Source of the DNA: Gemmatimonadales bacterium
Lineage (GTDB): Bacteria > Gemmatimonadota > Gemmatimonadetes > Gemmatimonadales > GWC2-71-9
DNA: 64,000 bases
Direction of reading: 5' to 3'
NCBI GenBank assembly: GCA_041615815.1
Contig: JBFJCP010000016.1
Span: 1-64,000, forward strand
The position numbers and the translations under genes were made by a program. Of this stretch, positions 1 through 21,302 are shown piece after piece. The number at the start of each line of letters is the position of its first letter. The stretch's first letter is position 1. Below the pieces are notes generated by a model. It saw only the letters and a list, made by a program, of their open reading frames with translations, did not search any database and had not been told where the DNA came from.

Positions 1-1032
1 AATCCGGAGCACCAACACGTTGACGAAGAGCCCAATGAGTCGCTCGAGTTCTGGAAGCTCACGGTTGGCCACCGGTGACCCAAACACGATCTCGTCCTGA
101 CGGGCGTAACGGGCGAGTGCCACCCCGGTCGCCGCCAGCAGAATCATAAAGAGCGTCGCCCCCTCGGCGTGAGCCACGGCGGTGAGACGCTCCACGTGCA
201 CAGCCGGTATCTCGAACGTCTGAGCGGTCCCGCGGTAGCGTTGGACGGCGGGACGTGGTCGGTCCGTCGGCAGCTCCAGTAACGGTAACTCACCGTCCAG
301 CTGGTCCTGCCAGTAGCGCAGCAGGCGCGCATACCGCTCGCCACTCAGCCAGTGCCGCTGCCAAGCTGCGTAGTCACCGTACCGGACCGGCAACTCGGGA
401 AGCGTGGGCTCGATGTTCTCGAGGTGCGCTTCGTACGCGGCGACGACTTCGCTGCGGAGGATGCCTAGCGACCACCCATCGATCACCGTGTGGTCCGCCG
501 CGAGGAGGAGGATGTGCTCCGACGTGGTCAGACGCAGCAGGCGGGCACGGATCAACGGGCCGGTGGCGAGGTGGAACCCCGCGGTGGCTTCTTCCTCCAG
601 AACCGCCGCAACGGCAGCCGCGCGCTCTTCGTCCGAAAGCGCCGACAAGTCGACCAGTGGGACGTCGAGACGAAGCGACTCCTCCACGATCTGCACCGGC
701 TCCGAACCCAGCATCCCGAACCTCGTGCGTAACGGCGCGTGGCGCTGCACCACGAGGTTGAGGCTCTCGATGAGCGCGCTGGCATCGAGCGGGCCGAGGA
801 TCCGGTAGGCGGTCCGAACCGTGTAGATGGGGGCGTCGGGTTCAAGCTGATCTAGGTACCACAGCCGCTCTTGGGCAAACGACAGCGGTGCGGGAGTGGC
901 ATCGGGCCGTCGAGGGATGCGGGGCGCCGCGTCGTCATCGGTGGCACTCCCGCGCAAACGACGCTCCAACAGGGCGCGCTTGGCCGGCGACAGTTTCGCG
1001 AAGCGCGCCGATCGATCCGGGGCTTCAGACAT
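1..1032 (-). CDS. NRPS subunit 3, N-terminal docking region and condensation domain (partial, runs off left edge)
   Basis: Not in ORF track. ATG at 1032 overlaps the upstream stop (ATGTCTGA). Manual translation gives MSEAPDRSARFAKLSPAKRALLERRL...LSFAQERLWYLDQLEP...ADHTVIDGWS, i.e. the C1 motif and an xHxxxDG motif. Confidence 0.92.
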   Translation of the reverse strand, partial: MSEAPDRSARFAKLSPAKRALLERRLRGSATDDDAAPRIPRRPDATPAPLSFAQERLWYLDQLEPDAPIYTVRTAYRILGPLDASALIESLNLVVQRHAPLRTRFGMLGSEPVQIVEESLRLDVPLVDLSALSDEERAAAVAAVLEEEATAGFHLATGPLIRARLLRLTTSEHILLLAADHTVIDGWSLGILRSEVVAAYEAHLENIEPTLPELPVRYGDYAAWQRHWLSGERYARLLRYWQDQLDGELPLLELPTDRPRPAVQRYRGTAQTFEIPAVHVERLTAVAHAEGATLFMILLAATGVALARYARQDEIVFGSPVANRELPELERLIGLFVNVLVLRI

Positions 1033-4000
1033 CCGATGGATCCGCGGCGGCCAGGCGCTCCGCCTCCTCCTCGGAGAGCGCTTCTACCTCGGCAAGCAGC
1101 AGGTCCTCGATGGCGGTCGCGAGATCGGCGATGGTCGGCGCTTCGAAGATGCGGCGCAACTCGAGTTCGATCTCGAAGTGCCGCCGCACGCGCGCGATGA
1201 TGCGCGTGGCGAGGAGAGAATGTCCGCCCACCTCGAAGAAGTTGTCGTACACGCTCACCTCGGATATCCCGAGCACTTCTTGCCAGGACTCCGCCAAGAA
1301 CCGTTCGGTATCGGTGCGCGGCACAACTCGCTCAACGTCCGATTCCCATTCCAGCTCCCCGGGATCGGGTAGGGCTTTCCGATCCACCTTCCGGGTCGTG
1401 GTCAGGGGGAAGGCGTCCAATTGCACCAACTGCGCCGGCACCATGTACTCCGGAAGTTTCTCTCGGAGGTACTCCCGTAACACGGCGAGATCGACCGTGG
1501 TCCCCGGCTCTTGTGGGACGAAATAGGCTACGATACGCTTGTCGCCGCCACCGCGTTCATAGACGAGGGTCGCCGCCTGCCGCACGTCGGGATGATCCCC
1601 CATCACGGCCTCGATCTCACCTAATTCGATCCGAAATCCGCGGATCTTCACCTGATGGTCCGTCCGCCCGAAAAACTCGAGGTTGCCGTCCGGCCGCCAG
1701 CGGCACACGTCCCCGCTCTTGTACATCCGCGCACCCGGCACGTCGCTGAACGGATTCGGCACGAATCGTTCGGCCGTGAGCTCGGGCCGGTTCAGATACC
1801 CGCGTCCCACCAGCTCCCCACCGATGTAGAGCTCACCCGGCACGCCCACCGGCACGGGTTGGCGCAGCGGATCCAAGACGTAGAGCTGGGTATTCAACAA
1901 GGGGACACCGATCGGGATGTTGGGCATCCCGTCACCGTCTTCATCCCCCGCCGGCCAGAGACTGCACGTCACGGTCGTCTCCGTGGGACCGTAGGAGTTG
2001 AGCCACTCGATGTCGGTTCCCACGATACGACGCCACGCCCGAAACGCGCCGGGCATCGCTGCCTCACCCCCGGCCGCAACCACGCGTACGGTGCTCGGGA
2101 ACGGTGCACCACCTTCCAACGCCCCCACCCACTCGTGCCAAAACGCCGTGGGGAGATCCAGCACGGTGATCTGATTGGACTCCACGAATTCGTGAAACCG
2201 CTCGAACGAGCCGATGAGTTCGGTGGGCAGGAGGACCACACCACCACCCTTCAGCAACATCGGCAAGATCTCTTCGCTTCCGGTGTCGAAAGCGATGGAC
2301 GACAGCTGGAGAATACGATCGTCCTCGTGGAGGGAGAAGAAATCATTGAGGCTGGCGCAGAGATTCATGAACGCCCGATGTTGAATCTCGACGCCCTTGG
2401 GCCGGCCGGTAGATCCTGACGTATAGATGACGTACAGCACGTTCGTGGGATCGGCCGTGCGTCCCAGGTTGTCTGCCGACTCCTCCGCAATGCGATCCCA
2501 ATCGCGATCCAGGCAGATGGTGGTGCCCGGATACGCCGGGAGGCGTTCGAGCATATCCTCGTGCGTGAGCAAGACCGGCGCGTCCGTATCTTCGAAGATG
2601 AAGGTCATTCGCTCGGGGGGATATCGCGGGTCCAGCGGTACATACGCGGCACCGGCTTTGAGAATCCCGAGGAGGCTCACCACCATGTCCAGCGATTTCT
2701 CCACGAACATGCTCACGAGCGATCCGGCGGATACGCCGAATTGCTGGAGATAGCGCGCGAGCTGATTGGCCCGTGCGTTCAACTCACGGAAGGTCAACAC
2801 CCCGTCCGGTGCGATCACCGCCGGAATGTCCGCTCGCGTTGCGGCCTGCTCTTCGAACACCTCGTGGACACAGCGATCGGCTCTGAAGTCGCCGGCCGTG
2901 TCGTTCCACGCGACCACCACCTGATGGCGTTCGTCTTCTGTGAGCAGCTGCAGGGCCCCAATCGGGGTCTCGGGATTGGAGATCGCTGCCCGTGCCAGCG
3001 TCTCGTAATGCCCGATCATGCGGCCAATCGTCTCGGCCTCGAACAGGTTGGTGTTGTACTCGAACCATCCTTGGAGTGCATCTTGGCTCTCGACGATGGA
3101 CAGGGTGAGATCGAAACGCGCCACCTTCGGGTCGATACGCCACGGTGTCATGGTTGCGCCGGGAAGCTCGAGCGTCTCCGTTGGCGCGCTTTGCCAATCG
3201 AACATCACCTGGAAGACTGGGTGGCGATCTACGTTCCGTTCGGGATGGAGTTCCTCTACCAATCGCTCGAAGGGCAACTCCTGGTGCGTGTAGGCATTCA
3301 ACGTCGTCTCGGACACCCGTTGCACGAGGTCGCGAAAGCTCGGATTGTCGGACAGATCCGTTCGGAGCGCGATCGTGTTCACGAAGAAGCCGATCATGTG
3401 CTCCAGCTCACCGCGATTGCGATTGGCGATCGGCGTGCCGACGATGATGTCGCCGAGCCGAGTGTACCGGTGAAGGAGCACCTGGAACAGGGCGAGGAGC
3501 GTCATGAAGAGCGTGACGCCCTGCTCCCGACCGATCTCCCGCAAACCGTCGGCCACCTCGGCGGGAATCGTGAACCCGGTCTCAGCTCCATTTGGCGCCA
3601 GGGCAGCACTGCGAGGTTTGTCCGTCGGCAGCTCGAGAATCGGGAGCCTCCCACCCAACTGATCCATCCAGTACGCGAGCTGCTGGCTCACCACCTCGCC
3701 CTGGAGCCGCTGTCGCTGCCACACCGCAAAGTCCGCATACTGAATCGGTAGGGGCACCAGCACGGGAGGACGTCCGTTCAGTGCCCCACGGTAGAGCTCC
3801 GCAAGCTCCCGTTGAAACACCCCTCGCGACCACCCGTCAAACGCCGCATGGTGCATCGTACAAGCCAGCACATGGTCTCCCCGGTGACGTGAGAAGAGCC
3901 GGGCTCGCAGCAACGGTCCGTTGGCCAGGTCGAACGGCCGCCGCGCTTCCTCCGCCACCAGCGCTTCCAAAGCCGCGTCCCCCATGTCGCCGACATCCTC

Positions 4001-4369
4001 GACGGGAACGGCCACGATCACCGGTGGTCCTATGACCTGCGTCGGGTCTCCATCCACGACGCGAAAGCTGGTGCGCAGGACCTCGTGGCGTTTCACGATC
4101 TCGCTCAGCGCGCCCTCGAGTGCCGCCACGTCCACGGTTCCCCTCAACCGGTAGCAATCCGGGAGATTGTATGCCGGGGTGCCAGGCTCGAGCTGGTCGA
4201 AGAACCAGAGACGCTCCTGCCCGAACGACAAAGGAACGGTGCCCTCCGCCGGACGACGGGGGATGCCGCCGTCGCTGTCCCGACGGATTCCTTTTTGCTC
4301 GAGCATCCGGGCGATCAGGGCGCGCTGGTGCTCGGATGGTCCGGCTGCTCGTGACGGTGGTTGGCTCAC
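1025..4369 (-). CDS. NRPS subunit 2, single module C-A-T
   Basis: C: LSFGQERLWF and HHAAFDG. A: YTSGSTGRPKG, YGPTE, YKSGD, GRTDHQVKIRGFRIELGEIE. T: FFEVGGHSLL. GTG start with AGGAAG upstream. Confidence 0.97.
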   Translation of the reverse strand: MSQPPSRAAGPSEHQRALIARMLEQKGIRRDSDGGIPRRPAEGTVPLSFGQERLWFFDQLEPGTPAYNLPDCYRLRGTVDVAALEGALSEIVKRHEVLRTSFRVVDGDPTQVIGPPVIVAVPVEDVGDMGDAALEALVAEEARRPFDLANGPLLRARLFSRHRGDHVLACTMHHAAFDGWSRGVFQRELAELYRGALNGRPPVLVPLPIQYADFAVWQRQRLQGEVVSQQLAYWMDQLGGRLPILELPTDKPRSAALAPNGAETGFTIPAEVADGLREIGREQGVTLFMTLLALFQVLLHRYTRLGDIIVGTPIANRNRGELEHMIGFFVNTIALRTDLSDNPSFRDLVQRVSETTLNAYTHQELPFERLVEELHPERNVDRHPVFQVMFDWQSAPTETLELPGATMTPWRIDPKVARFDLTLSIVESQDALQGWFEYNTNLFEAETIGRMIGHYETLARAAISNPETPIGALQLLTEDERHQVVVAWNDTAGDFRADRCVHEVFEEQAATRADIPAVIAPDGVLTFRELNARANQLARYLQQFGVSAGSLVSMFVEKSLDMVVSLLGILKAGAAYVPLDPRYPPERMTFIFEDTDAPVLLTHEDMLERLPAYPGTTICLDRDWDRIAEESADNLGRTADPTNVLYVIYTSGSTGRPKGVEIQHRAFMNLCASLNDFFSLHEDDRILQLSSIAFDTGSEEILPMLLKGGGVVLLPTELIGSFERFHEFVESNQITVLDLPTAFWHEWVGALEGGAPFPSTVRVVAAGGEAAMPGAFRAWRRIVGTDIEWLNSYGPTETTVTCSLWPAGDEDGDGMPNIPIGVPLLNTQLYVLDPLRQPVPVGVPGELYIGGELVGRGYLNRPELTAERFVPNPFSDVPGARMYKSGDVCRWRPDGNLEFFGRTDHQVKIRGFRIELGEIEAVMGDHPDVRQAATLVYERGGGDKRIVAYFVPQEPGTTVDLAVLREYLREKLPEYMVPAQLVQLDAFPLTTTRKVDRKALPDPGELEWESDVERVVPRTDTERFLAESWQEVLGISEVSVYDNFFEVGGHSLLATRIIARVRRHFEIELELRRIFEAPTIADLATAIEDLLLAEVEALSEEEAERLAAADPSDV

Positions 4370-4389
4370 GCTTGCTTCCTCATGGGTGT

Positions 4390-7300
4390 CTATTCCGACA
4401 GCTGCGCCCGCACTTCGTCGTCGGACAACCCCTCGACGACCAAGAGGGTGTCTGCGATCTCGTCCACGACCTCTCTCCCACCCACGAGGTCGGCTAATTC
4501 TCCTACGAGGCCAGCGACCGTGGGGTGTTCGAAGAGCCCGCGCACCGGGACTTCGATTTGAAACCAGTCGCGCAAACGTGACACGACCTGGGTGGCCAGC
4601 AGCGAGTGTCCGCCGAGCTCGAAAAAGTTGTCGTCGATCCCGAGCGTCTCGACCGCCAGCACCTGTTGCCAGATGCCGTGGACGAACCGCTCCGCCGACG
4701 ACTGGGGCGCGCGGCCCGTGGCTGCACTAGTCCCTTGTTCGGGCACCGGCAGCGCCGCCCGGTCTACTTTACCATTGGGCGTGAGTGGAAGACGTTCCAA
4801 GAACACGTACTGCGCCGGCACCATATAGTCGGGCAACCGCTCGCGCAGGAAACGCCACAAGGTGGGTTGACGGAGGCCGTCTGCTCCAACGACATAGGCC
4901 ACCAGCCGCGATCGCCCCTCACTCTCCCAGAGTGCCACGGCGCATCGTCGCACCTCGGGATGCCGGTGCAACGCCTGCTCCACGTCCGCGAGCTCCACGC
5001 GGAATCCGCGGATCTTCACCTGATGGTCACGCCGCCCAATCAACTCCAATTGCCCATCGTTGCGGACGCGGGCCAGATCGCCGGTGCGGAACAGCCGGTC
5101 GTACGAGCCCTCCGCAAACGGGTTTTCGATGAATCGCTCGGCGGTCAAGGCGGGCAAGTTCAGGTACCCGTTGGCCAGGCACGCCCCAGCCACGCACATC
5201 TCACCGGTTGCCCCCTGTGGGACAGGCCGGAGACGCTCGTCGAGCACGTAGACGCGGGTGTTGGCCAGGGGTTTCCCAATGGGAACTCGCTCCGCGCTCA
5301 ACGACAGCTGTCTGGTGTCGTACACCGTCACGTTGGACGAACATTCCGTCGACCCGTACAAGTTGAGCAGCGGTACATCGTCGAAACACCGACGCCACCG
5401 AGCCACCATGGAAACGGGGATCGGTTCGGCGCTGGTGGAGGCAAAGCGGAGCGTCTGCCACTCCTCCGGATGTTGTTCGGCTTGATCCAGGATTCCCTCG
5501 AAAAACGCCGGTGATGCCAAGACGTGGCTGACGCCGTGGGTCACGAGGCGGCGCCAGATTGCGGCCGGATCGATGATCTCATCCTGTGACAGAATGACCG
5601 TCGGTATTCCCACCAGCAGTCCGCCAAAACACTCCCATGTGGCGGCCACGAGCGCATACGATTTCTGCAGCAGCGCCACATCACCGTCACGGAAGGGAAA
5701 CTCCTCCCACATCCAGCGAAGGCGATTGAGCACTGCCCGCATGGTGATCAGTGCGCCCTTTGGAGTCCCCGTGCTCGCCGAGGTGTACACCACGTTGAGA
5801 ACGCTGTCCGGCGTGGTCACCGGTGTCGGGTCTTCCAACCGCTCCTGTCCGATGGCTGATTGTTCCACATCCAGGACGATCGTGGTATCCGCAAAGTCCG
5901 TGAAGCGATTCAGCGTGGAGTGCACGATCAACACGTCCGGTTCGGCGTCGTCGAGGATCGCCTCGAGTCGGGGAGTGGGATACGTGGGCTCCAGCGCCAC
6001 ATAGGTTCCCCCCGCTTTCAGGACACCGAGAATAGCAACCATCATATCGAACGAGCGTGGGAGGCAGAGGGCTACCCGCGTACCCGTACTCACTTCGCGG
6101 GCCCTCAAGTAATGCGCGAGTTGATTGGCGCGCTCGTTGAGCTCGACATAGGAGATGCTCTGGCCTTCCCACAACAGGGCCGGCTCGTCCGGCGTTCGCC
6201 GTACTTGGGCCTCGAACAGCTCCGCGATGCCGGCCGAGAGATCGAAATCGCGATGCGTATCGTTCATCTCTTCCAGCAGCGCCTGACGCTCGGCCTCAGA
6301 CACCACGGGGAGCGTTGAGATGGGACGGTTGGGATTCTCAACCACACTCCGCAGCAGAGCCTCGTAATTCGCCACCATGCGGGCCACCGTCGCCTCGTCG
6401 AACAGATCGCTGAGGTAGGCGATTTGGACGAACAGCCGTTCGCCCTGCTCCTGCGCGTAAAACGACATGTCGTACTTCGTGTAACCCGTATCCAGCTCGC
6501 TGAACGAAAGGGTGAGGCCTTCCACTTCGCAGGCGGTGTGGGGAAGGTTCAGCATGTTGAACATGACTTGGAACACGGGCGAGACGCTCGTGTCCCGAGC
6601 GGTCCGTGTCCCTTCCGCCATCCACATGAACGGGTATTCGGCATTGCTGATGGCACCGGTCACTCTGGCGCGGACTCGTTCCATCAGCTCGAGGAAGGTC
6701 GGGTCATCGTCCAGCAGGGCCCGGAGCGGCAGCATGTTGAGAAAGAATCCCACGATCGCTTCGCTGTGCGCTGCCGTGCGATTGGCGATCGGCGATCCGA
6801 TGATGACGTCGTCTTGGCCGGAGTATCGCTGGAGCAACACGTACGATGCGGCCAACAGCGTCATGAACAATGTCGCGTTGGCGTCCGTGCTCAGCGCTCG
6901 CAGGCGTCCCGTGAGCTCGGCCTCGAGCATGGCGGTTTGGGCCGCACCGCGATACGTCGGTGTATTGGATCTGGGGCGGTCCACGGGCAACGCAAGGATC
7001 GGAAGTTCTCCCGCGAGTTGCTCTTGCCAATAGAGCTCCTGGGCTCTGAGCTTATCGCGCTGTAGCCGCTCCTGTTCCCACAACACGTAGTCGCCAAAGC
7101 CCACGGGCAGCGCGGGGAGCGGCTCCGACTCGCCCTGCCGGATCCGCCTATACAACTCACCGAGATCCTTCACGATCACGGAGATGCCCCAGAGATCGAG
7201 GATGATCTCTTGAAAGGTGATCAGGAGCTCATGGTGATCTTCGGCCAGCTTGAAGAGCTCGGGTTGCAGCAACGCGTCCAGCTCGAGGTCCAGTGCCCGT

Positions 7301-10300
7301 CGACCCTTGACTGCCGCTCGTGCTTGCAGATGGGAAAGCCGCTCCGCTTCCGGCAGGTGCGTGAGGTCGACGACCGAAAGTTCCGCGCATCGCCGATCAT
7401 CGAAGATCTGCACGGGACGATCGCCCTCCGTCGCAAATCGTGCTCGCAGCACGTCGTGGCGTTCGACGACGCCCCGCCAGGCTTCGCGCAACGCCGCCAG
7501 GTCGAGGTCGCCTCTGATGTGAATCGTCCCCTGCGCGGTGTAATAGGGGCTCTCGGGTTCCAGCCGCCAGAGGAACCACACGCCCTGTTGTGCCAGGCTC
7601 AACGGGTAGGCGGTTCGCCCATCCCGCTCCGCACCGCCCAGCTGCTGCAAGACCCCTTCTTGCACTTCCTCACCCAATCGCTCAGCGAGCTGTGCCACGG
7701 TGCCGTGCTCGAAAAGGTCTCGGAAGCTCACGGATGCGTCGAACACCTGGCGAAGACGATTGAGCACCTGCATGGCGAGGAGCGAGTCGCCGCCAAGCTC
7801 AAAAAACCCGTCGTGTACACCCACTCGCTCGAGTCCAAGTACCTCCGCCCAGATCGCAGCCACCCGTTCCTCGCGGGGGGTCCGCGGTGCCGTATACGGT
7901 TCGGCGAGCTCCGGCCGCACCACATCTGGCTCGGGCAACGCCTGCACGTCGAGTTTGCGATTCGCATTCAGCGGGAGGGCATCGAGTTGAATCAGCTGCT
8001 GCGGGATCATGTGCGCGGGGAGCTCGCTCTCGAGGAACTGGCGCAACGCAGACGGGGCCAGGCTCTCCCGCGTGGTGTAGTAAGCCACGAGCACCTTTTT
8101 CCCCTCAGCCCCCCCCGACGCTCTCACGTCTCGCTCCTTCGCCACCAGTGTGCCACGACCGGAACGCGCGGTGCGCACGAGCGCGGCACAATTCGCGACG
8201 GCGGGATGGCGCCGGACGCTCGCCTCCACGTCCCCGAGCTCCACACGAATACCACGCAACTTGACGAGGTTGTCGCGCCGTCCTAAGAACTCGATGGTCC
8301 CATCAGGGGTCCACCGACCCAGATCGCCCGTTCGGAAAACGGGATCTGCATCCCCGTCCGGCAGCGAATGGTCGAGGAAACGCGATGCCGTTTCCTGTTC
8401 CCGTTTGAAATAGCCAAGCGTCAGGTACGGGCTGCGGATGAAGAGCTCGCCCTGCACCCCGATAGGACACGGCAGCCCCGCCTTGTCGAGAATCAGAATC
8501 TGCCGGCCGCGAATCGGTCTCCCCACGGGCACGCTCTGGTCACCGGGCGACACTCGATCCACGTGATGGTACGAGGCCAGTACGGTTTCGCTGGGCCCGT
8601 ACAGATTGTACAGGGCCGGTGCGTCGGGAAACCGCAGAAGGTCGCGTGCCAAATCCACCGGGAGTACTTCACCGGCGAGCAACAGCAGCCGAACCGATGG
8701 CAAGGGGTGTCCGTCACCCTCCGCATGTTGCCGCAACACCTCTACGAGCTCACGGCAGAAGCTCGGAACGATCTGCAGGATGGTGATCCCCTCACGCCGC
8801 ACCCAATCCGCAAGCGCCGTCGGGTCATACCGCACCGCCTCGCTCGCCATGCACAACGTCGCTCCGAAACAGAGCGTGCCGAAAATCTCACAGTACGACG
8901 CATCGTAGGCGATCGATGCCCACTGTGCCCACCGTTCCGATGCGCCAATGTGGAATTGATCGCTCTGCCAAGTCACGAACTGTACGAAACTGCGATGCGA
9001 CTGCACGATCCCCTTGGGTCTGCCGGTGGACCCCGAGGTGTAAACGATGTACGCAACTCCGCTGGGATCGACATCGAGCCCGGGATTCTCGGCAGCCAGT
9101 TCGGCGAAGATAGCGTTCTCGGCGGGCTCCTCAGCATCGGCGTCCATCATCACTACGTGCGCCGCTGCGCGCTCGACCCACGCTGCGAGGTCCGGATGTC
9201 TGGCAAGCGCCCGAGCGTCCGCGATCAGGAACTCGGTCTCGGTTTCCTCGAGAATCTCCAGCAGACGGCGCGTAGGATGGACGGGATCCAGACAGACGAA
9301 GGCCGCCCCTGTCTTCAAGACACCCAGCATCGCCGTCACCTGCTGTGGTCCGTTCTCCAACAGCACCGCAACAGGTTGTTGGGCTTGGACGCCGTCGGCG
9401 ACGAGCCGGTGGGCAACGCGGTTGGCCTCACGGTTCAACTCGTCGTACGTGACGTGCCCCTCGCCGAAGGTGATAGCGATCGCCTCGGGCGTCTCGGCAA
9501 CATGTGCCTCGAAGAGCTCGTGTAGTGCTCTCGTGGGCGGCTCATCGTGGCGAGCATCCCATTCGGCGAGCTGCTGCGTCTCAGACGACGACAACAACGA
9601 CACAGTCGAGGGCGGTTGGTCCGGCTCGGTGATGGCCCCGTCCAACAGCTGTTCCAGATGGCCTGCGAGCCGCGCGGCGTCCGCCGCACCGAACACATCG
9701 GATGCATACCGCACGACGGCCCGGGGGACGCCGTCCCCCTCCTCCACCACCACCTCGAGATCGCATTCGGGACCAACGGGAACGACCTCCACCTCGGTGA
9801 CGACGAGCCGTTGCGCGGCATTGGAGAGCAGGGCTGAGCGGTGCCGAACGGTGAACCCCACCTGAGGCCGCGGGGGCGCCACGGGAGTGGAAGGCTGCGT
9901 TTCCGCCGCCTCCAGCTGCGCCGCCACTTGCTGCGACCACGCGCGAAAGGATCCGCCGCTCGAGAGCTCCACCGTGATCGGCTGCCGCTGCTCCAACGGT
10001 CCCACGATTCCGTCGCCGCCTTCGGCAGGAGCGTCCCGGCGCGCGAGCCACACGGTCACTCGATCCTCGTCGGAATACCGCCCCAGCAAGGCCACCACTG
10101 CCGTCAGCAGCAAGACGTGCACGGTGGTACCGACCTCGGTAGCCACGGTGTCCAGACCCTCGAGCGTGGGAGCGGGCAAGCTCAACGGTGCCGTGCGCGC
10201 CGTGGGCGGCCCGTCTGCGTGTATCGCGTGGCCAGGAAGGTGGAGCCGCTCAGGCTCGATGCCGCGTTGGGGACCAGATGGACCGTCCAGCCATGCTCTG

Positions 10301-10917
10301 AACGACGGGGCCTTCGGCTCGGTGAACACCGCACGCGAGTCCCTCTCGAGACGGAGATAGGTGGTCACGAGATCCTCGCCAAGCAGCAGGAGCGAGGGTT
10401 CGTCCGCGATGAGGCGGTGCGCGACGAGCACGAGCACATGCTCTCGGCGCGGCATGTGCACGATCGTGGCATCCAGCAGCGGCGGCGACCCAAGGTCGAA
10501 CTCTTTTCCGGCCGCCATGGCGACGAGCGCATCGCAGTGCGCCTCCGCGTCCCCAACCGTCTCCGCCGAAAGGTCGACGGTGCGGACACTCCCCGGAGCA
10601 GTCCGGAGCGTGTGTTGCATGGGCGGACCGTTGCGGACGGTGAAGCCGGTGCGCAGGGCGTCATGACGGACCAGGAGCGCGTCCAGGGCTGTGCCCAGCA
10701 CCGCGCGGTCCACCACACCGGTCAACCGCAGCCGGGCCACGACGTTGCGGATTCCCTGCTGGTGGGGCCCGTGTTGCAGATGCCAGATACGATCCTGCTC
10801 GGCGGACAGCCGAAACTCGCCCGCGCGGCCCGGAACCCCAGGCACGGCCGTCCGAGGTCGGTACCGGCCCCGGAGACGATCGAGCGTATCCATGGATGAC
10901 GTCATGGGCGGGCGCAT
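4390..10917 (-). CDS. NRPS subunit 1, two modules C*-A-T-C*-A-T, both C domains non-canonical
   Basis: Two A domains (YTSGSTGRPKG; YTSASTGTPKG) and two T domains (GGDSL; GGHSL). C motifs read HRLIADE and QEIILDL. Confidence 0.96.
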   Translation of the reverse strand: MRPPMTSSMDTLDRLRGRYRPRTAVPGVPGRAGEFRLSAEQDRIWHLQHGPHQQGIRNVVARLRLTGVVDRAVLGTALDALLVRHDALRTGFTVRNGPPMQHTLRTAPGSVRTVDLSAETVGDAEAHCDALVAMAAGKEFDLGSPPLLDATIVHMPRREHVLVLVAHRLIADEPSLLLLGEDLVTTYLRLERDSRAVFTEPKAPSFRAWLDGPSGPQRGIEPERLHLPGHAIHADGPPTARTAPLSLPAPTLEGLDTVATEVGTTVHVLLLTAVVALLGRYSDEDRVTVWLARRDAPAEGGDGIVGPLEQRQPITVELSSGGSFRAWSQQVAAQLEAAETQPSTPVAPPRPQVGFTVRHRSALLSNAAQRLVVTEVEVVPVGPECDLEVVVEEGDGVPRAVVRYASDVFGAADAARLAGHLEQLLDGAITEPDQPPSTVSLLSSSETQQLAEWDARHDEPPTRALHELFEAHVAETPEAIAITFGEGHVTYDELNREANRVAHRLVADGVQAQQPVAVLLENGPQQVTAMLGVLKTGAAFVCLDPVHPTRRLLEILEETETEFLIADARALARHPDLAAWVERAAAHVVMMDADAEEPAENAIFAELAAENPGLDVDPSGVAYIVYTSGSTGRPKGIVQSHRSFVQFVTWQSDQFHIGASERWAQWASIAYDASYCEIFGTLCFGATLCMASEAVRYDPTALADWVRREGITILQIVPSFCRELVEVLRQHAEGDGHPLPSVRLLLLAGEVLPVDLARDLLRFPDAPALYNLYGPSETVLASYHHVDRVSPGDQSVPVGRPIRGRQILILDKAGLPCPIGVQGELFIRSPYLTLGYFKREQETASRFLDHSLPDGDADPVFRTGDLGRWTPDGTIEFLGRRDNLVKLRGIRVELGDVEASVRRHPAVANCAALVRTARSGRGTLVAKERDVRASGGAEGKKVLVAYYTTRESLAPSALRQFLESELPAHMIPQQLIQLDALPLNANRKLDVQALPEPDVVRPELAEPYTAPRTPREERVAAIWAEVLGLERVGVHDGFFELGGDSLLAMQVLNRLRQVFDASVSFRDLFEHGTVAQLAERLGEEVQEGVLQQLGGAERDGRTAYPLSLAQQGVWFLWRLEPESPYYTAQGTIHIRGDLDLAALREAWRGVVERHDVLRARFATEGDRPVQIFDDRRCAELSVVDLTHLPEAERLSHLQARAAVKGRRALDLELDALLQPELFKLAEDHHELLITFQEIILDLWGISVIVKDLGELYRRIRQGESEPLPALPVGFGDYVLWEQERLQRDKLRAQELYWQEQLAGELPILALPVDRPRSNTPTYRGAAQTAMLEAELTGRLRALSTDANATLFMTLLAASYVLLQRYSGQDDVIIGSPIANRTAAHSEAIVGFFLNMLPLRALLDDDPTFLELMERVRARVTGAISNAEYPFMWMAEGTRTARDTSVSPVFQVMFNMLNLPHTACEVEGLTLSFSELDTGYTKYDMSFYAQEQGERLFVQIAYLSDLFDEATVARMVANYEALLRSVVENPNRPISTLPVVSEAERQALLEEMNDTHRDFDLSAGIAELFEAQVRRTPDEPALLWEGQSISYVELNERANQLAHYLRAREVSTGTRVALCLPRSFDMMVAILGVLKAGGTYVALEPTYPTPRLEAILDDAEPDVLIVHSTLNRFTDFADTTIVLDVEQSAIGQERLEDPTPVTTPDSVLNVVYTSASTGTPKGALITMRAVLNRLRWMWEEFPFRDGDVALLQKSYALVAATWECFGGLLVGIPTVILSQDEIIDPAAIWRRLVTHGVSHVLASPAFFEGILDQAEQHPEEWQTLRFASTSAEPIPVSMVARWRRCFDDVPLLNLYGSTECSSNVTVYDTRQLSLSAERVPIGKPLANTRVYVLDERLRPVPQGATGEMCVAGACLANGYLNLPALTAERFIENPFAEGSYDRLFRTGDLARVRNDGQLELIGRRDHQVKIRGFRVELADVEQALHRHPEVRRCAVALWESEGRSRLVAYVVGADGLRQPTLWRFLRERLPDYMVPAQYVFLERLPLTPNGKVDRAALPVPEQGTSAATGRAPQSSAERFVHGIWQQVLAVETLGIDDNFFELGGHSLLATQVVSRLRDWFQIEVPVRGLFEHPTVAGLVGELADLVGGREVVDEIADTLLVVEGLSDDEVRAQLSE

Positions 10918-10932
10918 TCGGAGGACTCTCGC

Positions 10933-12462
10933 TCAGGCCAACCCGAGCTCGGTAGCCCACGAATGGCGGCGGCGGCGGAAGCACTCGTGTGCCGCGTTGA
11001 TGTCGTCCGCCATCACGCGGTCTTTGTCGAGGAAGGTGACATGCTGGCGAAACTCGTCAAAAATCTCCTGCGTGATGGGTGAGAGTCGCAGCTCCTTGTT
11101 GAGCTCGATCGCTTGGGCTGCCGTCATCAACTCGATGGCCATGATGTAGGTCGCGTTCTCTACCACCGTCATGAGCTTGTACGCAGATGTCCCACCCATG
11201 CTGACGTGATCCTCCTGGAGCTGACAGGTGGGAATGGTATCCACGCTCGCCGGTGTGCACAGCACCTTGTTCTCGTTGACCAGCGCTGCCGACGTATACT
11301 GGGCAATCATGAAACCGGAATTGAGTCCGGGCTTGTTCACGAGGAAATCGGGCAGCCCCCGCTGTCCGGAGAGCAGCTGATAGGTGCGCCGTTCCGAGAT
11401 ATTGGCCAGCTCGCTGGTCGCCATGGCCAAAAAGTCGAGCATGAACGCCGGCGATTCGCCGTGGAGATTGCCGCCGAAGAGAATCGTATCCTCATCCGGG
11501 AAGAACAGCGGATTGTCCGACACACCGTTCAACTCTTGCTCGATCACCTGGGTCGCAAAGTTCACGACCTGCCGAATAGCGCCATGCACCTGCGGGGTGC
11601 ATCGGAACGAATACGGATCCTGCTTCGACTGATTGCATGTGGGGAGCTCGTGATGATTGCTGCCCTCGAGCAGCTTCACCATGTTCCGCGCCACGGTGCT
11701 CCGCTCGGCGTGGTGCGACGTGCTGTGATAGAGCGGCTGATAGAACGTCTCGGAGGTGCTGAACGCCTGCGAGCTGAGAGCGGCCAAAAGGTCGGCGCAC
11801 TTCACCAAATCCACGATCTGCAGCAGGCACTCGACGGCGATGGCCGTGATGTACTGCACACCGTTGGTCAGCGCCAAGCCCTCTTTCGGCTTGAGCCGGA
11901 GCGGCGCGGCCCCGAGCGCCTTCAAGGCCTCTGCCCCATCGATCGTGGTGCCGTTCCGATGGACCTGACCGAGACCGAGCAACGGGAGCGCCATATGGGC
12001 AAGGGGTGCCAGGTCTCCGCTGGCCCCCACCGTGCCCTTCTTCGGAATCACGGGAATCAGTTCCTGATTCCACAGTTCGAGCAGCCTTGTCACGGGATCG
12101 AGCGAGATACCGGTGTGACCGCTCCGAAAGGTGAGCAGCTTGATGAGCAGCGTCAGCCGGGAGATGCGCTCCGGAACGGCCTCCCCCACACCTACCGCGT
12201 GCGACACGACGTGGTTGAACTGCAGCGCCTCCATCTCGTCGCCCGCCACCCGCGTCTCGCAGAGCGAGCCGAAGCCCGTATTCGTACCGTAGATGTAGCG
12301 ATCTTCGGCTGCTTTGGCGCGCACGAACTCCGCCCCTCGATTGATTCTCGCTTGAACCGCCGACGACAGTGCGAGGCGAGGTCTTTCCTCGACCAGACGA
12401 CCGAGGTCACCCAGCGAGTAGTAGTCCATCGAGACCGCATGAGTCTTGGTGGCTGTCACCAT
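10933..12462 (-). CDS. MIO-dependent aromatic amino acid lyase/aminomutase family enzyme, histidine ammonia-lyase-like
   Basis: YGTNTGFG, VSHAVGVG, GTVGASGDLAPLAH (MIO-forming ASG), QDPYSFRC, GFMIAQY, QEDHVSM. Start moved to ATG 12462 (GGAGG upstream), giving 509 aa. Confidence 0.95.
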   Translation of the reverse strand: MVTATKTHAVSMDYYSLGDLGRLVEERPRLALSSAVQARINRGAEFVRAKAAEDRYIYGTNTGFGSLCETRVAGDEMEALQFNHVVSHAVGVGEAVPERISRLTLLIKLLTFRSGHTGISLDPVTRLLELWNQELIPVIPKKGTVGASGDLAPLAHMALPLLGLGQVHRNGTTIDGAEALKALGAAPLRLKPKEGLALTNGVQYITAIAVECLLQIVDLVKCADLLAALSSQAFSTSETFYQPLYHSTSHHAERSTVARNMVKLLEGSNHHELPTCNQSKQDPYSFRCTPQVHGAIRQVVNFATQVIEQELNGVSDNPLFFPDEDTILFGGNLHGESPAFMLDFLAMATSELANISERRTYQLLSGQRGLPDFLVNKPGLNSGFMIAQYTSAALVNENKVLCTPASVDTIPTCQLQEDHVSMGGTSAYKLMTVVENATYIMAIELMTAAQAIELNKELRLSPITQEIFDEFRQHVTFLDKDRVMADDINAAHECFRRRRHSWATELGLA

Positions 12463-12484: not shown

Positions 12485-13471
12485 TCAGGCAGATCGTAGC
12501 CGCTGTCGTTGCGACCTCCGTTCGAGTTGTTCCAGGCAATCTCGGATCGCCCCGTAGTCCTCGTCGGCCAGCTTTTGACCGTGCGAGAACGGGAAGGATT
12601 CTGGAATCTCGCGGAATGGCTCGACCGGCGCACCGTGCTCGTTCATGAACGTGGCGATCCGCGCCAGCTCGGACCGTGGCCGCTCACAGACGTCGCGGTA
12701 GCGGACCTCGAGAAACCGGTCGTTCCCTACCGCGCGGCGTTGCCGCTCGAGGTGTTCCCGCACGTAAAACACTTGCTTACACACTTGATGACTCAACGCC
12801 TCGCCGCTGATCTCATCGCACTCGGGCGGTCGCCCGCCGAACCAGTCGGGATAGTCGGTCTGCCGCGCACGAAAGATCGATTGCGCGGTGTCCGCGAGAT
12901 CACGACTCACGAGAATAAAGATTGCCCGGGGAAAGATCCGGACCAGCGCCTCGATTCTGAGGTTCAGCGAACAGGTCTTGTTTACGAACGGCAACCGGAA
13001 AACACGCTCGGTATCCGCCACGGCCCGGTACATCTTCTCGATCTGCGTGGGCGTCAGGGTCTTCGCAGCCACTGCGTCGTACTTCGTGCCAAAATAATGT
13101 CCCCAGATCTGTTCACCCTCAGCCGGAGCGCTCTTTCCGCGAATCTGGCCGAAGCGGCTCTGGAAGGGGGCAGCCTCGTAATGATCGTCCGTGGGGGGCG
13201 ACCCGCAGAAGAGATGGACCATCCGCGCCGTGGTATACGGCAGCGGCCGTCCAAGGAGCCGGAACGATTCGCCCATCAGATTGGTGAAGTGACACGTGGT
13301 GAGCCCCCACGAAACCACCTGCCGAGTCACGGTGGTGCCGCTCCGCGCCGGCCCGACGATGAACGTCGGGGGAAAGCGGAGCTCGTAGGGACGCCGCGGG
13401 AACCGCTCCACGACTTGCAGGAGCCGGTACATGGACCTGCGGGCGGCAATTGCGAGTTTCCATCGCTTCAC
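12485..13471 (-). CDS. Sulfotransferase family protein
   Basis: 5'-PSB-like FIVGPARSGTT and 3'-PB-like ILVSRDLADTAQS. GTG start overlaps the thioesterase stop (GTGA) with a GGAGG RBS. Confidence 0.88.
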   Translation of the reverse strand: MKRWKLAIAARRSMYRLLQVVERFPRRPYELRFPPTFIVGPARSGTTVTRQVVSWGLTTCHFTNLMGESFRLLGRPLPYTTARMVHLFCGSPPTDDHYEAAPFQSRFGQIRGKSAPAEGEQIWGHYFGTKYDAVAAKTLTPTQIEKMYRAVADTERVFRLPFVNKTCSLNLRIEALVRIFPRAIFILVSRDLADTAQSIFRARQTDYPDWFGGRPPECDEISGEALSHQVCKQVFYVREHLERQRRAVGNDRFLEVRYRDVCERPRSELARIATFMNEHGAPVEPFREIPESFPFSHGQKLADEDYGAIRDCLEQLERRSQRQRLRSA

Positions 13472-14313
13472 CCGGCACCTCCCCACAGCCACGCCGCGAG
13501 ATCCTGCGCCACTGTCTCAAGCACATCAGCGCGCGCGTCTTGGAGAAAGAAATGCCCTCCGGGAAAGAGTCGGACCGCCGCCACGCTGTCCGTGTGGACG
13601 CGCCACCCCTCGAGCTCCCCGACGGGCACGAGCTGATCCTTTTCACCGCCGAGGATCGAGATGGGACACGCAAGCGGATGCTCGGTTCGGTGCTCATAGG
13701 TTTCGAAAACCCGAAAATCGGCCCGCAGCGTGGGGAGAACGAGATCCAGGAGCTCGTCGTTCCCCAGCAACTCCTCGGGAACGGTGCCGAGCCGGCGCAA
13801 TCCCGCCACGAAGTCCTCCCGCGGGAGTCCGTGCAACGGGTTCGACCGTGGAGTTTGCGGCGCCGGGGAGCCGGCCACGAAAAGCCCCACCGGACCCGGG
13901 AGCCCGTGGCGCCTCTGCCATCGGGCGAGCTCGAAGGCAATGAGGCCACCAAGACTGTGGCCAAAGAGACAAAACGGGGTTTCCGTCCATGGCTCGAGCG
14001 CCGGACCGACTGCTTCGAGCAAGGCCGCGAGATCGTCAAGCGGCGCCTCCACCCATCGTGTCTCTCGCCCGGGGAGTTGCACTCCGCAGACCTCGATGTC
14101 CGGCGGCAGCACGTTCTCCCAACTGCGAAACGCCGAAGCGCTGCCTCCGGCATGGGGAAAACCAATCAAGCGCACTCGAGCGCCGGGCCGGGGACGCACG
14201 TACGGCACCCAGCGACTGCGGCGACTCGCGCGCGGCACGTCCACGTCTGTCGAGACCGATTGTACTCCGTCGATGATCGCCTCCTGGATTGTGTGTCGCG
14301 ATTCGCGGTTCAC
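13468..14313 (-). CDS. Type II (editing) thioesterase, GrsT-like
   Basis: FPHAGGSAS, GHSLGG nucleophile motif, LRAD, GGHFF. Confidence 0.93.
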   Translation of the reverse strand: MNRESRHTIQEAIIDGVQSVSTDVDVPRASRRSRWVPYVRPRPGARVRLIGFPHAGGSASAFRSWENVLPPDIEVCGVQLPGRETRWVEAPLDDLAALLEAVGPALEPWTETPFCLFGHSLGGLIAFELARWQRRHGLPGPVGLFVAGSPAPQTPRSNPLHGLPREDFVAGLRRLGTVPEELLGNDELLDLVLPTLRADFRVFETYEHRTEHPLACPISILGGEKDQLVPVGELEGWRVHTDSVAAVRLFPGGHFFLQDARADVLETVAQDLAAWLWGGAG

Positions 14314-14663: not shown

Positions 14664-15512
14664 CTAACGGACACTCTCTGGACGCTCGGGCTGCTTCCCC
14701 TCCTCCACCCAGGGTTTGCAACAGTCGTCCAGTAAATACTTCCAGCCCGCCGCCATATGTTGCTCGACCTCGGGAGCGAGCGCACCAAAGAGACTGTCTC
14801 GGAACTGTACCAGCGTCGCGGCGTCCTCGGACTTCAGCGTAAAGGACGTTATCGACCGTCCGGGACCCCCGAACTCCGCCGGGAGATCGCCCACCCACTG
14901 CAGCACCTCACCGCTCCGCACGGTCGTGACGGTAGCCCAGAGCGCTCCCTCCCCACCCCCCCAATCCTCGTAGACGCGACCGCCCACCCGTGGCTCGATC
15001 CGAAACGCCACCGGCGACGTTCCCACGTAGAACTTCTTGGGCCACCATGCAGCGATCTCCTCGACCAGGGCCCCCCACACCCGGGACCGCGGCGCGTCGA
15101 TCCGCGCCTCGAGCTGGACGTCCACGGTCCGAAAACCACGTTCTGTCTTGGTCTGTGTCATCGGCGTCTCTCCCGGCAGCCGCTCCGCGATCGCCTTCAG
15201 CCGCAACAGTCGCTGCGGCGACTCACCCTCGAACGGGCGGATCCATCGTCGTGCGATCTGCTGGATAGGTACAGGGTTCAGGTGGTTCCACCGCTCCCGG
15301 CCACGGCGACGCACGAATACCAGCCCAGCCTCGACCAGCACTTGTAGGTGCTTCATGACGCCAAATCGGCTCACGGGAAACTCGTTGGCGAGATCGCCGG
15401 TGGTTCGCGGACGTTCACGAAGCAAGTCCAGAATGGCCCGGCGCGTGGGGTCGGCCAACGCCTTCCAGGCGGGAGGATCGTCCGTACGGCGCTGTTGCAG
15501 AGGCTGGAACAT
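14664..15512 (-). CDS. ArsR-family HTH regulator fused to an SRPBCC/AHSA1 domain
   Basis: WKALADPTRRAILDLL...VMKHLQVLVEAGLV followed by IDAPRSRVW...GW. Confidence 0.9.
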   Translation of the reverse strand: MFQPLQQRRTDDPPAWKALADPTRRAILDLLRERPRTTGDLANEFPVSRFGVMKHLQVLVEAGLVFVRRRGRERWNHLNPVPIQQIARRWIRPFEGESPQRLLRLKAIAERLPGETPMTQTKTERGFRTVDVQLEARIDAPRSRVWGALVEEIAAWWPKKFYVGTSPVAFRIEPRVGGRVYEDWGGGEGALWATVTTVRSGEVLQWVGDLPAEFGGPGRSITSFTLKSEDAATLVQFRDSLFGALAPEVEQHMAAGWKYLLDDCCKPWVEEGKQPERPESVR

Positions 15513-15547
15513 ATGTGACTATATAGTCACATATCTCATGCTGTCAA
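15511..15547 (-). promoter_or_regulatory. Sigma70-type promoter (TTGACA-N18-TATAGT) overlapped by a perfect 24-bp palindrome, probable ArsR operator
   Basis: ATATGTGACTAT|ATAGTCACATAT at 15511-15534. -35 at 15547-15542, -10 at 15523-15518, ATG 5 nt downstream. Confidence 0.8.
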
Positions 15548-15616
15548 GGTGACACAATTCACGGTCTCGGCACCCCTGCCCTTCTACGTTCAGAACGCCT
15601 CCCGAGGACAGGACGG

Positions 15617-15958
15617 ATGCGATCACGCTTGATGTTGGCCACCGCCTTCGCGCTGCTCAGCAGCACTGCACTCACCACGGCGGCCCTTGCGCAGGGTCCC
15701 AAGGGGTACGCGGTGACCCCTGATCAGGCGGTGGTCGTCGTCAAAGGTGTCCTCATGCATCAGGGATTCCGGATTGTGCGTCTCGAAAAGCGCGGCTCTG
15801 ATGTGCTGGTGTACTATCGGCGGGGGAACATGGGGAAGGGCAAAGGCCAGGGTCCGCCCATGCGTCTCGTGATTCGGCGGATCGAGGATCGCGTCGTCTT
15901 CGAGGAAACGCCGGCCGACATCCTCGTCGATATCGATGTGCACCTCCGGTTGCCATAA
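15617..15958 (+). CDS. Secreted hypothetical protein
   Basis: Signal peptide ending ALA-Q; AGGA upstream. Confidence 0.7.
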   Translation: MRSRLMLATAFALLSSTALTTAALAQGPKGYAVTPDQAVVVVKGVLMHQGFRIVRLEKRGSDVLVYYRRGNMGKGKGQGPPMRLVIRRIEDRVVFEETPADILVDIDVHLRLP

Positions 15959-16058
15959 CCGCTGAGCCGGAGCCCGCGCCGCGTAGCACCACCGTTCATT
16001 CGTTGGACCGATTCTTGCCTTCCGTGGACGCGTTCCCTGTCCACGGATCCGCGCCCCC

Positions 16059-17297: not shown

Positions 17298-17402
17298 GGC
17301 TGCGCGCCCCCCCAAGGCGCCCGTCTCTTACGGCCTCTTCGCTCCTCCACCATCTTTGCACGTCATCCCGTCTCGACCGTTGGCCGGAGAGGAGCGCGCA
17401 TA

Positions 17403-18920: not shown

Positions 18921-18940
18921 AACGGCGAAGGCAAACCGAA

Positions 18941-18984
18941 GAATGCAGAATGGTAGGGTGACCGGGATCTACCATTCTGCATTC
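18941..18984. terminator. Perfect 16-bp hairpin between convergent genes, probable bidirectional terminator
   Basis: GAATGCAGAATGGTAG-N12-CTACCATTCTGCATTC. Confidence 0.7.
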
Positions 18985-18999
18985 GACCGTCTGCGGTCT

Positions 19000-20682: not shown

Positions 20683-20746
20683 GAAAGACTCCAAGTCATG
20701 GGATGAGGTGTGTGAATGGAGATCGGGTTGCGGTCGCGGCAGGCTC

Positions 20747-21172
20747 TCACGGCGACACCGCCTCAACGAACACCGGCACTTCGCGACACTCTTCTCGGCG
20801 CTCGAGCTCGGTCTGACGAGTCACTTCCCCCGTCCGCGGGTCGCGCACGCTACGAGTCACCGGCACCATGTGCTCGGCGCATTCGCGCACCACGCCATGG
20901 AGTCGCTGGCTGCGTGCGCGGAAACAGAACGGACCGCAGGCGAGCGCACAGCCATCGGTGCTGGTGCACTCGAAAACCGCATCGCTCCCGATCCAAAGGG
21001 TGTCTGGCACGACGGTTTCCACATCGCCATGGATGCGGAGCAATCCCGACGTGGCGGTCGCAACGATCTGCCACTGGTAGAGACCGGCGAGATCCTGCGG
21101 GAGGATCGGACGGGTTTGCGACCCTCCGCACCCAAGACACAGGACTGGCACCACACAGAGACGGGCCCACAT
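20747..21172 (-). CDS. Hypothetical lipoprotein-like protein
   Basis: MWARLCVVPVLCLGC signal/lipobox; no family recognised. Confidence 0.45.
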   Translation of the reverse strand: MWARLCVVPVLCLGCGGSQTRPILPQDLAGLYQWQIVATATSGLLRIHGDVETVVPDTLWIGSDAVFECTSTDGCALACGPFCFRARSQRLHGVVRECAEHMVPVTRSVRDPRTGEVTRQTELERREECREVPVFVEAVSP

Positions 21173-21302
21173 CGATAATCTGGCGACCGGCACAATGGAA
21201 ACTAAGCTCCGGTCACACGCTGCGTCAGCCACCCACGACCCACCCCTAGCGCTGGATCGGGCTCCGGCCCTAGCCTTTCAGAGTCCACACTCGGAGGCCA
21301 CC

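Follow-up and report, generated by a model that had tools for sequence, protein, structure and literature searches.

A histidine ammonia-lyase relative in a peptide synthetase operon

The first 64 kb (64,000 nucleotides) of contig C16 (JBFJCP010000016.1) in the genome of a Gemmatimonadales bacterium (assembly GCA_041615815.1; 4.19 Mb in 73 contigs) was analyzed here and is referred to as the window. Open reading frames and their translations identify a single operon on the minus strand, running toward the contig end, with genes for a type II thioesterase, a sulfotransferase, an enzyme of the 4-methylideneimidazole-5-one (MIO) type, and three nonribosomal peptide synthetases (NRPS1, NRPS2, and NRPS3). 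The focus of this study is the MIO enzyme, which is related to histidine ammonia-lyase (HAL) and is a candidate histidine 2,3-aminomutase, together with A1, the first adenylation domain of NRPS1. The MIO gene lies at 10933..12462 (minus strand; Pfam Lyase_aromatic, PF00221, E = 4e-166) and starts with the ATG at 12462, giving a protein of 509 amino acids; a longer frame from a GTG, extending to 12633, would overlap the gene upstream. NRPS1, of 2175 amino acids, follows at 4390..10917 (minus strand), and Pfam together with motif and alignment analysis resolves it into a degenerate condensation (C) domain, the adenylation (A) domain A1, a carrier (T) domain, a non-canonical C domain, a second A domain (A2), and a further T domain. 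An earlier reading of this DNA, made from the letters without database searches and called here the sequence-only reading, had placed the end of the MIO gene 15 nucleotides before NRPS1, and the sequence has exactly this distance between the MIO stop codon and the NRPS1 ATG. The same reading had stated that hutU, hutI, and hutG are missing from the window; this holds for hutU and hutI, while hutG was not searched for.

The only hutU and hutI genes of this genome are on contig C9, in a canonical hutH-hutU-hutI operon (63832-68212, minus strand). The HutH protein encoded there scores 636 bits against the hutH model, reads NLILSH and DANQEDVVPM at two of its motifs, and is 39% identical to the MIO enzyme of the window. 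The MIO enzyme is therefore a second HutH-type copy in the genome, located outside the hut operon, and it is a member of a separate clade. At least 120 database homologues are 64-77% identical to it, with records from Chloroflexota, Pyrinomonadaceae, Polyangium, Phaselicystis, Stigmatella, and Kangiella; ordinary HALs, sampled in metagenomes and in the window's phylum, reach 37-50% identity. The clade contains at least 126 sequences, and in a tree of 126 clade members and 92 ordinary HALs the two sets split with 100% support in both IQ-TREE and FastTree, on a separating branch of length ∼0.66-0.69 (IQ-TREE) or 0.58 (FastTree), which establishes the clade as distinct. One of the 92 ordinary sequences is L113, from genome G097, and no result hinges on it. 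The deepest branch within the clade is a sequence from a metagenome contig, L006. A metagenome profile scan with generic patterns (QEDHVSMG, VGASGDLAP) returned 79 ordinary HALs and one clade member, and was used as a control for ordinary HALs rather than as a source of genomic contexts for the clade. The MIO gene of a related genome, G315, had been considered broken, and this was rejected when the reported TAG codon was found to sit upstream of a frame of 504 amino acids.

Family models place the enzyme close to, and just within, the HAL family. Against the NCBIfam hutH equivalog (TIGR01225) it scores 545.5 bits, a narrow pass of the cut-off of 539.15. Its scores of 328 bits against Tyr_2_3_mutase (TIGR03832; cut-off 501) and 332.6 bits against Phe_D_beta_mut (TIGR04475; cut-off 800) both fall below threshold, and the NCBIfam models for Tyr and Phe lyases are likewise missed by far. 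The family of the enzyme is thereby established, and the sequence-only view that it derives from HAL rather than being an ordinary Tyr/Phe aminomutase agrees with these scores.

The active site combines conserved and replaced positions. All of the motifs quoted previously (GFMIAQ, QEDHVSM, NHVVSH, and CQLQEDH) are present in the translation. The MIO-forming Ala-Ser-Gly triad (12016..12024, minus strand, within GTVGASGDLAP) aligns with ASG 142-144 of the Pseudomonas putida HAL (1GKM), and in the numbering of that enzyme the alignment also conserves Tyr53, Ser82-His83, Asn195, Gln277, Tyr280, Arg283, and Glu414, which, with the triad, we take to be the catalytic and histidine-binding set of HALs. 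Equivalents of the catalytic Tyr and of Asn195, Tyr280, and Arg283 are invariant in an alignment of 30 clade sequences. The Ser-His pair and Glu414 are presumably determinants of specificity between HALs and the Tyr/Phe enzymes; the former is kept within NHVVSH (12199..12216, minus strand), in which Leu79 has become His, and the latter within CQLQEDH (11206..11226, minus strand), in which the three residues before Gln413 are changed. In GGNLHG (11458..11475, minus strand), Leu replaces Phe329.

Comparison of clade columns with general HALs indicates how consistent these replacements are. The Phe329 column is Leu in 126 of 126 clade sequences and Phe in 92 of 92 general HALs; at Thr197, Val is found in 98% of the clade versus Thr in 100% of general HALs; and at Leu79, 92% of the clade has His versus Leu in 87% of the general set. 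The columns of Ser410-Ala-Asn read C (93%), Q (99%), and L (99%) in the clade, and S (95%), A (54%), and N (49%) in general HALs. Furthermore, Pro333 of ordinary HALs is Ser in the clade, and a two-residue insertion ahead of Gln277 is found in the clade and in none of the ordinary HALs. Since the same residues are fixed across the clade, the NHVVSH and CQLQEDH variants are marks of the whole clade and not oddities of one gene. Compared with HutH (TIGR01225; 1GKM), then, the enzyme shares the fold family, the MIO triad, the catalytic Tyr, His83, Glu414, and a score just over the cut-off, and differs in its 39-47% identity, its separate clade on a long branch, its replacements at Phe329, Thr197, Leu79, and Ser410, and its NRPS neighbours in place of hutU and hutI.

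The gene pair and its adenylation domain

The position of the clade member among its neighbours can be read in 14 loci, which comprise 12 clusters with a shared NRPS cassette of A1-T-C-A2-T, one cluster in Chromobacterium vaccinii MWU205, and the contig L006. An adenylation gene stands beside the clade member in all 14. The coupling of a MIO enzyme to this type of A domain, as proposed in the sequence-only reading, thus recurs across genomes. In the 12 cassette clusters, the clade gene sits immediately upstream of an NRPS gene opening with A1 (in NRPS1, after the degenerate C domain); these are found in the window, in a genome of the same genus (G346), in G315 (same class as the window genome), in an Anaerolineae metagenome-assembled genome (G402, locus L004), and in eight further genomes of the order of G402. 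Only one of these eight, G1318, was annotated, and for the other seven adjacency is taken from coordinates only, the second C domain following the end of the MIO gene at 2.5-2.6 kb, a distance equal to the length of A1-T. The complete cluster of G346 has genes for an M16 peptidase, a type II thioesterase, a sulfotransferase, the MIO enzyme, three NRPSs, and two hydrolases. The smallest NRPS cluster annotated, that of G1318, has the MIO gene, three NRPS genes, a type II thioesterase, and a sulfotransferase, and no other precursor-making enzymes were found in the 20 kb read there.

The two remaining loci show the pair in other settings. In C. vaccinii MWU205, the MIO gene closes a different cluster, of NRPS and polyketide synthase (PKS) genes, in the order: a loading A-T cut by the contig end, C-A-T, a gene resembling Asp/Asn hydroxylases, a PKS module, an NRPS with monooxygenase and oxidase domains, a type II thioesterase, and the MIO enzyme. 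On L006, the MIO gene overlaps by 4 nucleotides a gene for a stand-alone A enzyme of 505 amino acids. No urocanase gene was found in the seven annotated clade loci. The control set comprised 49 metagenome loci of 8 kb or more with an ordinary HAL; hutU is present in 29 of these and NRPS A or C domains in none.

Co-occurrence was examined in samples of genomes, several of these searches having scored 2-5 candidates per genome. Three of the 401 genomes sampled from the window's phylum carry the clade enzyme (at least 71% identity), and the same three carry A1 (at least 58%), with next-best matches of 44% and 42%, respectively. In the order of G402, the clade enzyme and the cassette are in the same nine of 167 genomes, and each of the eight genomes tested there also holds an ordinary HAL, at 41% identity, elsewhere. 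A scan of genome contigs for clade loci gave two loci. Wider samples yielded no additional carriers, with 1 of 401 genomes in Pseudomonadota, this being the centre genome of the sample itself, 1 of 401 for the cassette in the phylum of G402, and 1 of 20 in Chromobacterium. The positional pattern spans at least three phyla, as judged from record titles or separate phylum samples. This neighbourhood is the strongest evidence obtained. With the two genes found together again in further genomes, the pairing of the MIO enzyme with A1 is not a matter of chance, and the association with this type of A domain is fixed.

A1 itself spans 7918..9525 (minus strand), and orthologues with 58-66% identity were found only in genomes that have the MIO clade. 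Each of the strings quoted for it in the sequence-only reading (GIVQSH, AQWASIAYDASYCE, LQIVPSF, NLYGPSETVLAS, and IRSPY) is present. Read from GrsA motif anchors, its specificity code is D235, A236, C239, Q278, L299, A301, L322, then V-L or L-A according to gap placement, and K517, in agreement with the DACQLALLAK extracted by hand. The Asp at the position of GrsA Asp235, the residue that contacts the substrate's amino group, is at 8902..8904 (minus strand, in AYDAS) and aligns with the FD of both LgrA A domains. We take this pocket to resemble the codes for arylglycines (such as hydroxyphenylglycine, Hpg) and the putative code for beta-Tyr in SgcC1, and to be unlike codes for alpha-His. The substrates of arylglycine domains and of SgcC1 have the ring on the amine-bearing carbon.

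The loop between strands beta13 and beta14 is the second feature of interest. In A1 it consists of three residues, Thr-Val-Leu (8578..8586, minus strand), and is one residue short, with a one-residue gap after YGPSE both in HMMER alignments against the two LgrA A domains and in MAFFT alignments against 60 other A domains; the sequence-only reading had described the same shortening. It had also given this loop as a mark of A domains for beta-amino acids, and the mark is indeed described in PMC11253843. According to the same review, the loop of VinN is one residue shorter and leaves space for an extra backbone carbon, Asp235 in VinN-type domains holds the substrate's beta-amino group, and a TycA evolved for (S)-beta-Phe carries the tripeptide Xaa-Leu-Val where the loop had four residues (PMC11253843). 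A1 is thus like VinN, IdnL1, CmiS6, HitB, and evolved TycA (5N81, 5N82) in its loop length and in having the Asp235 that these use for the beta-amino group; it has Xaa-Val-Leu where evolved TycA has Xaa-Leu-Val, and Ala at position 236, where VinN has Phe and evolved TycA has Val (PMC11253843). Against the PDB, the A1 segment scores 45.3 and 44.9 bits with the evolved TycA chains and 42.3 bits with wild-type TycA, a small difference in the expected direction.

All cassette clusters have an A1 signature in common, with YDASYCE, ILQxVPSF, LLLAGE, NLYGP(S/T)E-Xaa-(Val/Ile)-Leu-A(S/T), and Lys517. Among 25 domains with the A1 loop from a motif scan, 23 read Xaa-Val-Leu and two Xaa-Ile-Leu, and the Xaa residue across the A1 family is Thr, Cys, Ala, Ser, or Leu. 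The A domain of module 2 in C. vaccinii shares the signature (GIVQSHRSF, NYDAALCE, MLQLVPSY, NLYGPSEAVLAT). In a FastTree analysis of 60 A domains, a clade with 98% support contains the A1 domains of the cassettes, three pocket variants, both domains of the database protein P0151, the C. vaccinii domain, and a further short-loop group. The L006 enzyme lies just outside the A1 clade; it is only ∼30% identical to A1, yet its pocket hardly differs, being D-A-P-H-L-A-L...K versus D-A-C-Q-L-A-L in A1.

These domains also indicate what kind of substrate is used. The A1-like domain of C. vaccinii is preceded by a canonical C domain (HHIAADA) and is fed by an upstream loading module, and P0151, a protein with methyltransferase families, has two A1-type domains in tandem, each after a canonical C domain (HHVVADG). 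Because Asp235 and Lys517 are kept and canonical C domains precede A1-like domains in both proteins, the A1 type takes an amino acid. Urocanate does not fit these results, as it has no amine; the substrate of an A1-type domain is one with a free amino group.

The short-loop family extends beyond the A1 signature. Two of four P0134-type domains in the wider family have a Cys-Gly-Leu loop. Cassette domains in P0203, P0217, and P0227 have a different pocket, with Arg239, Asn278, and His-Pro near position 300, and a sister group (P0134, P0141, P0196) has Glu or Asp at 239. To judge from these pockets, the family may take several different amino acids, possibly beta-amino acids.

Proposed beta-histidine supply and its alternatives

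We infer that histidine is the substrate of the MIO enzyme, that beta-histidine rather than urocanate is its product, and that A1 is the consumer. Beta-histidine is the simplest product that bears an amine, because the histidine-binding residues are kept, the enzyme is constantly paired with a short-loop A domain of the amino-acid type, and the G1318 cluster has no other precursor enzymes; with beta-histidine as the product, the MIO enzyme would therefore be a histidine 2,3-aminomutase. That the enzyme has this activity and supplies beta-histidine for loading by A1 is the reading that we favour, as a proposal for which we judge the case to be evenly balanced. In the mechanism envisaged, a histidine-specific MIO enzyme that has diverged from HAL would serve the NRPS rather than histidine breakdown, and would shift the amino group of L-histidine to C3, giving beta-histidine. 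A1 would then adenylate beta-histidine, and T1 would carry it as the starter unit, with the N-terminal C domain as a presumed dead remnant. The chain could be extended by the unusual C-A2-T module, by NRPS2 (probably with a basic amino acid), and by NRPS3, and the co-transcribed sulfotransferase probably sulfates the product.

Known systems provide parallels. In the pairs SgcC4/SgcC1 (C-1027), CmdF/CmdD, AdmH/AdmJ, HitA/HitB, and HabB/HabA, a MIO enzyme is likewise encoded in the cluster beside an A domain that would take its product. The stand-alone A enzyme of L006 can be likened to SgcC1 and HitB, which we take to be stand-alone as well. Like A1, A domains of such pairs keep Asp235 and have a shortened beta13-beta14 loop. 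The differences are that the enzyme here descends from HAL and not from Tyr/Phe mutases, that its substrate would be histidine and its mutase activity is that of a candidate, and that A1 does not have the bulky residues at 236 and 301 and is nearer to ordinary NRPS A domains than to the VinN type. In the imidacin pathway of Stigmatella aurantiaca, a histidine-derived unit also enters an assembly line through an A domain, although the HAL there is encoded at a distance from the cluster and urocanate is the starter on a PKS, in contrast to an enzyme encoded within the operon and an A domain of the amino-acid type (PMC11301661).

Several observations weigh against the beta-histidine proposal. The sequence of the enzyme carries no known marker of mutase over lyase activity, and the enzyme passes the NCBI hutH equivalog cut-off. 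The other mark that has been published for A domains of this kind, namely bulkier residues opposite the loop at 236 and 301, is not found in A1, which has Ala at both; PMC11253843 describes such residues as needed, VinN having Phe and Ser at these positions and evolved TycA having Val236. A1 matches the VinN-type structures 5JJQ (E = 1.4e-44) and 5JJP (4.8e-42) more weakly than GrsA (7e-67) and many alpha-type domains, and overall is nearer to canonical NRPS domains, so that A1 does not group with VinN-type enzymes. The short loop is not exclusive, as the unrelated domain P0129_A3, with a Pro-like code, also shows the gap, and a proline ligase (6O6E) is among the high-ranking matches to the A1 segment. 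The A domains of C. vaccinii and L006 are on long branches of the A-domain tree. Since many loci are from genomes that are kin, neither they nor the co-occurrence counts represent independent events. Finally, a Stigmatella HAL makes urocanate in vitro (PMC11301661), and Stigmatella proteins, which may include this HAL, fall within the MIO clade in the tree. On balance, the earlier beta-histidine proposal is partly supported: the HAL origin, the extra gene copy, the coupling to an A domain, and the short loop agree with it, and the small residues at 236 and 301 and the weaker match to VinN-type domains do not.

The main rival explanation is that a dedicated HAL supplies urocanate to A2, that the non-canonical C domain joins it by non-amide chemistry, and that A1 loads an unrelated amino acid. 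A score above the hutH cut-off and the retained HAL residues count in its favour, as do features of the module that would be fed: A2 has Val235 with otherwise intact core motifs, (H/Q)E replaces HH in the C domain before it, and the MIO enzyme co-occurs with the entire A1-T-C-A2-T cassette in 12 clusters. Loading of urocanate by an A domain also has a precedent in imidacin biosynthesis (PMC11301661). This explanation is nevertheless unlikely in our view, and is weakened because the C. vaccinii genome, despite having the clade enzyme and an A1-like domain, contains no C-A2 relative above 39% identity, and because L006 has one A gene, a lone stand-alone enzyme that has Asp235 and a pocket like that of A1. 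Asp235 is kept by each of the four A domains seen in the C. vaccinii cluster, and urocanate at a second position would have no amine with which to accept the chain. A housekeeping HutH could supply urocanate in any case, as in Stigmatella, whose HAL gene lies far from the cluster (PMC11301661), and it is HAL-invariant residues that have been replaced in the clade.

These replacements also bear on another possibility, which is that the enzyme is a MIO aminomutase or lyase acting on a different aromatic or heteroaromatic amino acid and that A1 loads its product. At several active-site positions the enzyme departs from every one of the 92 ordinary HALs examined, and the pocket of A1 is largely hydrophobic, contains a single Gln, and is presumably akin to the codes for arylglycine and beta-Tyr rather than alpha-His. 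Set against this are the retained Ser-His pair and Glu414, which we take to discriminate HALs from Tyr/Phe enzymes, the scores far under the cut-offs of Tyr/Phe mutase and lyase models, and the smallest clusters, which have no genes for an unusual precursor; we regard this possibility as improbable. It is scarcely credible that the enzyme is an ordinary catabolic HAL with incidental NRPS adjacency: the hutH equivalog cut-off is passed, yet a full hut operon is present elsewhere in the genome, the same neighbourhood is found in 14 of 14 readable loci from at least three phyla, and NRPS neighbours are found in none of the 49 ordinary-HAL loci.

If the beta-histidine reading is right, it would add a new substrate class to the known logic of a MIO enzyme plus an A domain. 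To our knowledge, MIO aminomutases act only on Phe, Tyr, and close analogues, and we know of no beta-histidine building block in nature. The sequence-only reading knew of no characterized histidine aminomutase, and none was found in the literature covered, which mostly excluded subscription journals and had nothing relevant on beta-histidine or on HAL with NRPS and urocanate. A 2022 review does mention a histidine aminomutase, and reports no genomic evidence for an enzyme that makes beta-histidine (PMC9002059). A broader claim is possible, and we hold it tentatively, at somewhat less than an even chance: that this is the first histidine 2,3-aminomutase, arisen from HAL independently of the Tyr/Phe mutases, and that it defines a widespread family of NRPS pathways starting from or containing beta-histidine. 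Such a family would range over Chloroflexota, the window's phylum, and Chromobacterium, and probably over myxobacteria and Acidobacteriota, and most of its pathways would continue through the conserved module, in which the C domain is without its His and the A domain without Asp235. If true, this enzyme family, already well studied, would gain a new reaction, beta-histidine, which binds metals, could be made by biocatalysis, and the clusters would indicate a natural product family not yet isolated by anyone. Should the enzyme turn out to be a lyase, the clade would still provide a clean example of how a housekeeping enzyme is recruited to secondary metabolism, with its active site rebuilt. Testing the pairing is easy, as C. 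vaccinii MWU205 is cultured (by its record title) and the smallest NRPS cluster has few genes.

Other assembly-line domains and accessory genes

The domains that surround A1 in NRPS1 are unusual. The first C domain (9538-10830, minus strand) has lost its catalytic His, with HRLIADE at the position of the His motif (10399..10419); orthologues have APALALDE in G346 and TSRLVMDN in L004, and the domain is missing or shortened in G315 and in many database relatives. Because the N-terminal C domain is degenerate, or absent in relatives, A1 is taken to act as a loading module. A possible N-terminal carrier domain in L004 (GGHSL, 17 residues into the frame) was rejected, since there is no space for a carrier fold before the Ser. 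The T1 carrier domain with its GGDSL motif lies at 7675..7869 (minus strand; Pfam PP-binding and translation).

The second C domain (6253..7635, minus strand) reads QEIILDL at its His motif (7192-7212), which departs from HHxxxDG and is conserved among relatives as (H/Q)ExxLDLW. Its best PDB matches are LCL-type C domains of teixobactin biosynthesis, in which HH aligns with QE. The A2 domain that follows (4693..6252, minus strand) has Val at position 235, within LVAATWE (5632-5652), by alignment; its remaining core motifs are intact. The A1-T-C-A2-T unit as a whole is 54-68% identical across 12 genomes. Among 23 database NRPSs whose first domain is of the A1 type, a motif scan found both the (H/Q)E mark of the C domain and the Val235 mark in 20; P0125, P0217, and P0227 have one mark each.

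NRPS2 (1025..4369, minus strand; Pfam and motifs) consists of a canonical C domain (HHAAFDG), an A domain, and a T domain. The A domain has acidic residues in its pocket (AFDTGSEE, VLDLPTAF), and we take it to be of the basic-amino-acid type, as we take the third NRPS of G346 to have a Gly-like code. NRPS3 (1..1032, minus strand; Pfam) starts with a C domain and is cut at the contig end; its counterpart in the sister genome G346 is C-A-T, followed by two alpha/beta-hydrolase genes.

Two accessory genes precede the MIO gene in the operon. The first gene of the operon, for a type II thioesterase (13468..14313, minus strand; Pfam Thioesterase, E = 5.5e-44), has counterparts in the clusters of G346, G315, L004/G402, L005, C. 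vaccinii, and G1318. The sulfotransferase gene (12485..13492, minus strand; Pfam Sulfotransfer_3, E = 4.1e-18) has counterparts in the G346, L004/G402, and G1318 clusters, from two phyla, and no sequence relatives in the PDB were found at E ≤ 0.01. As the sulfotransferase travels with the MIO-NRPS pair, its conservation suggests that the product of the assembly line may be sulfated.

Further genes border some of these clusters. In G1318, an acyl-CoA dehydrogenase gene follows the sulfotransferase gene. Downstream of the Anaerolineae cluster, locus L141 (G402:C89:50001-63832) encodes, at 1597-10939, an acyl-CoA dehydrogenase, a stand-alone A enzyme, a flavin halogenase, an acyltransferase, and a protein with the domain order C-T-TE-T-TE (TE, thioesterase), a gene set that we presume to be like those of halopyrrole-carboxylate pathways. 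Upstream of the operon in the window (14664-23610) are genes for an ArsR-type regulator fused to an AHSA1 domain, two ATP-grasp-like proteins, an M24 peptidase, an amidohydrolase, and an M55 D-aminopeptidase.

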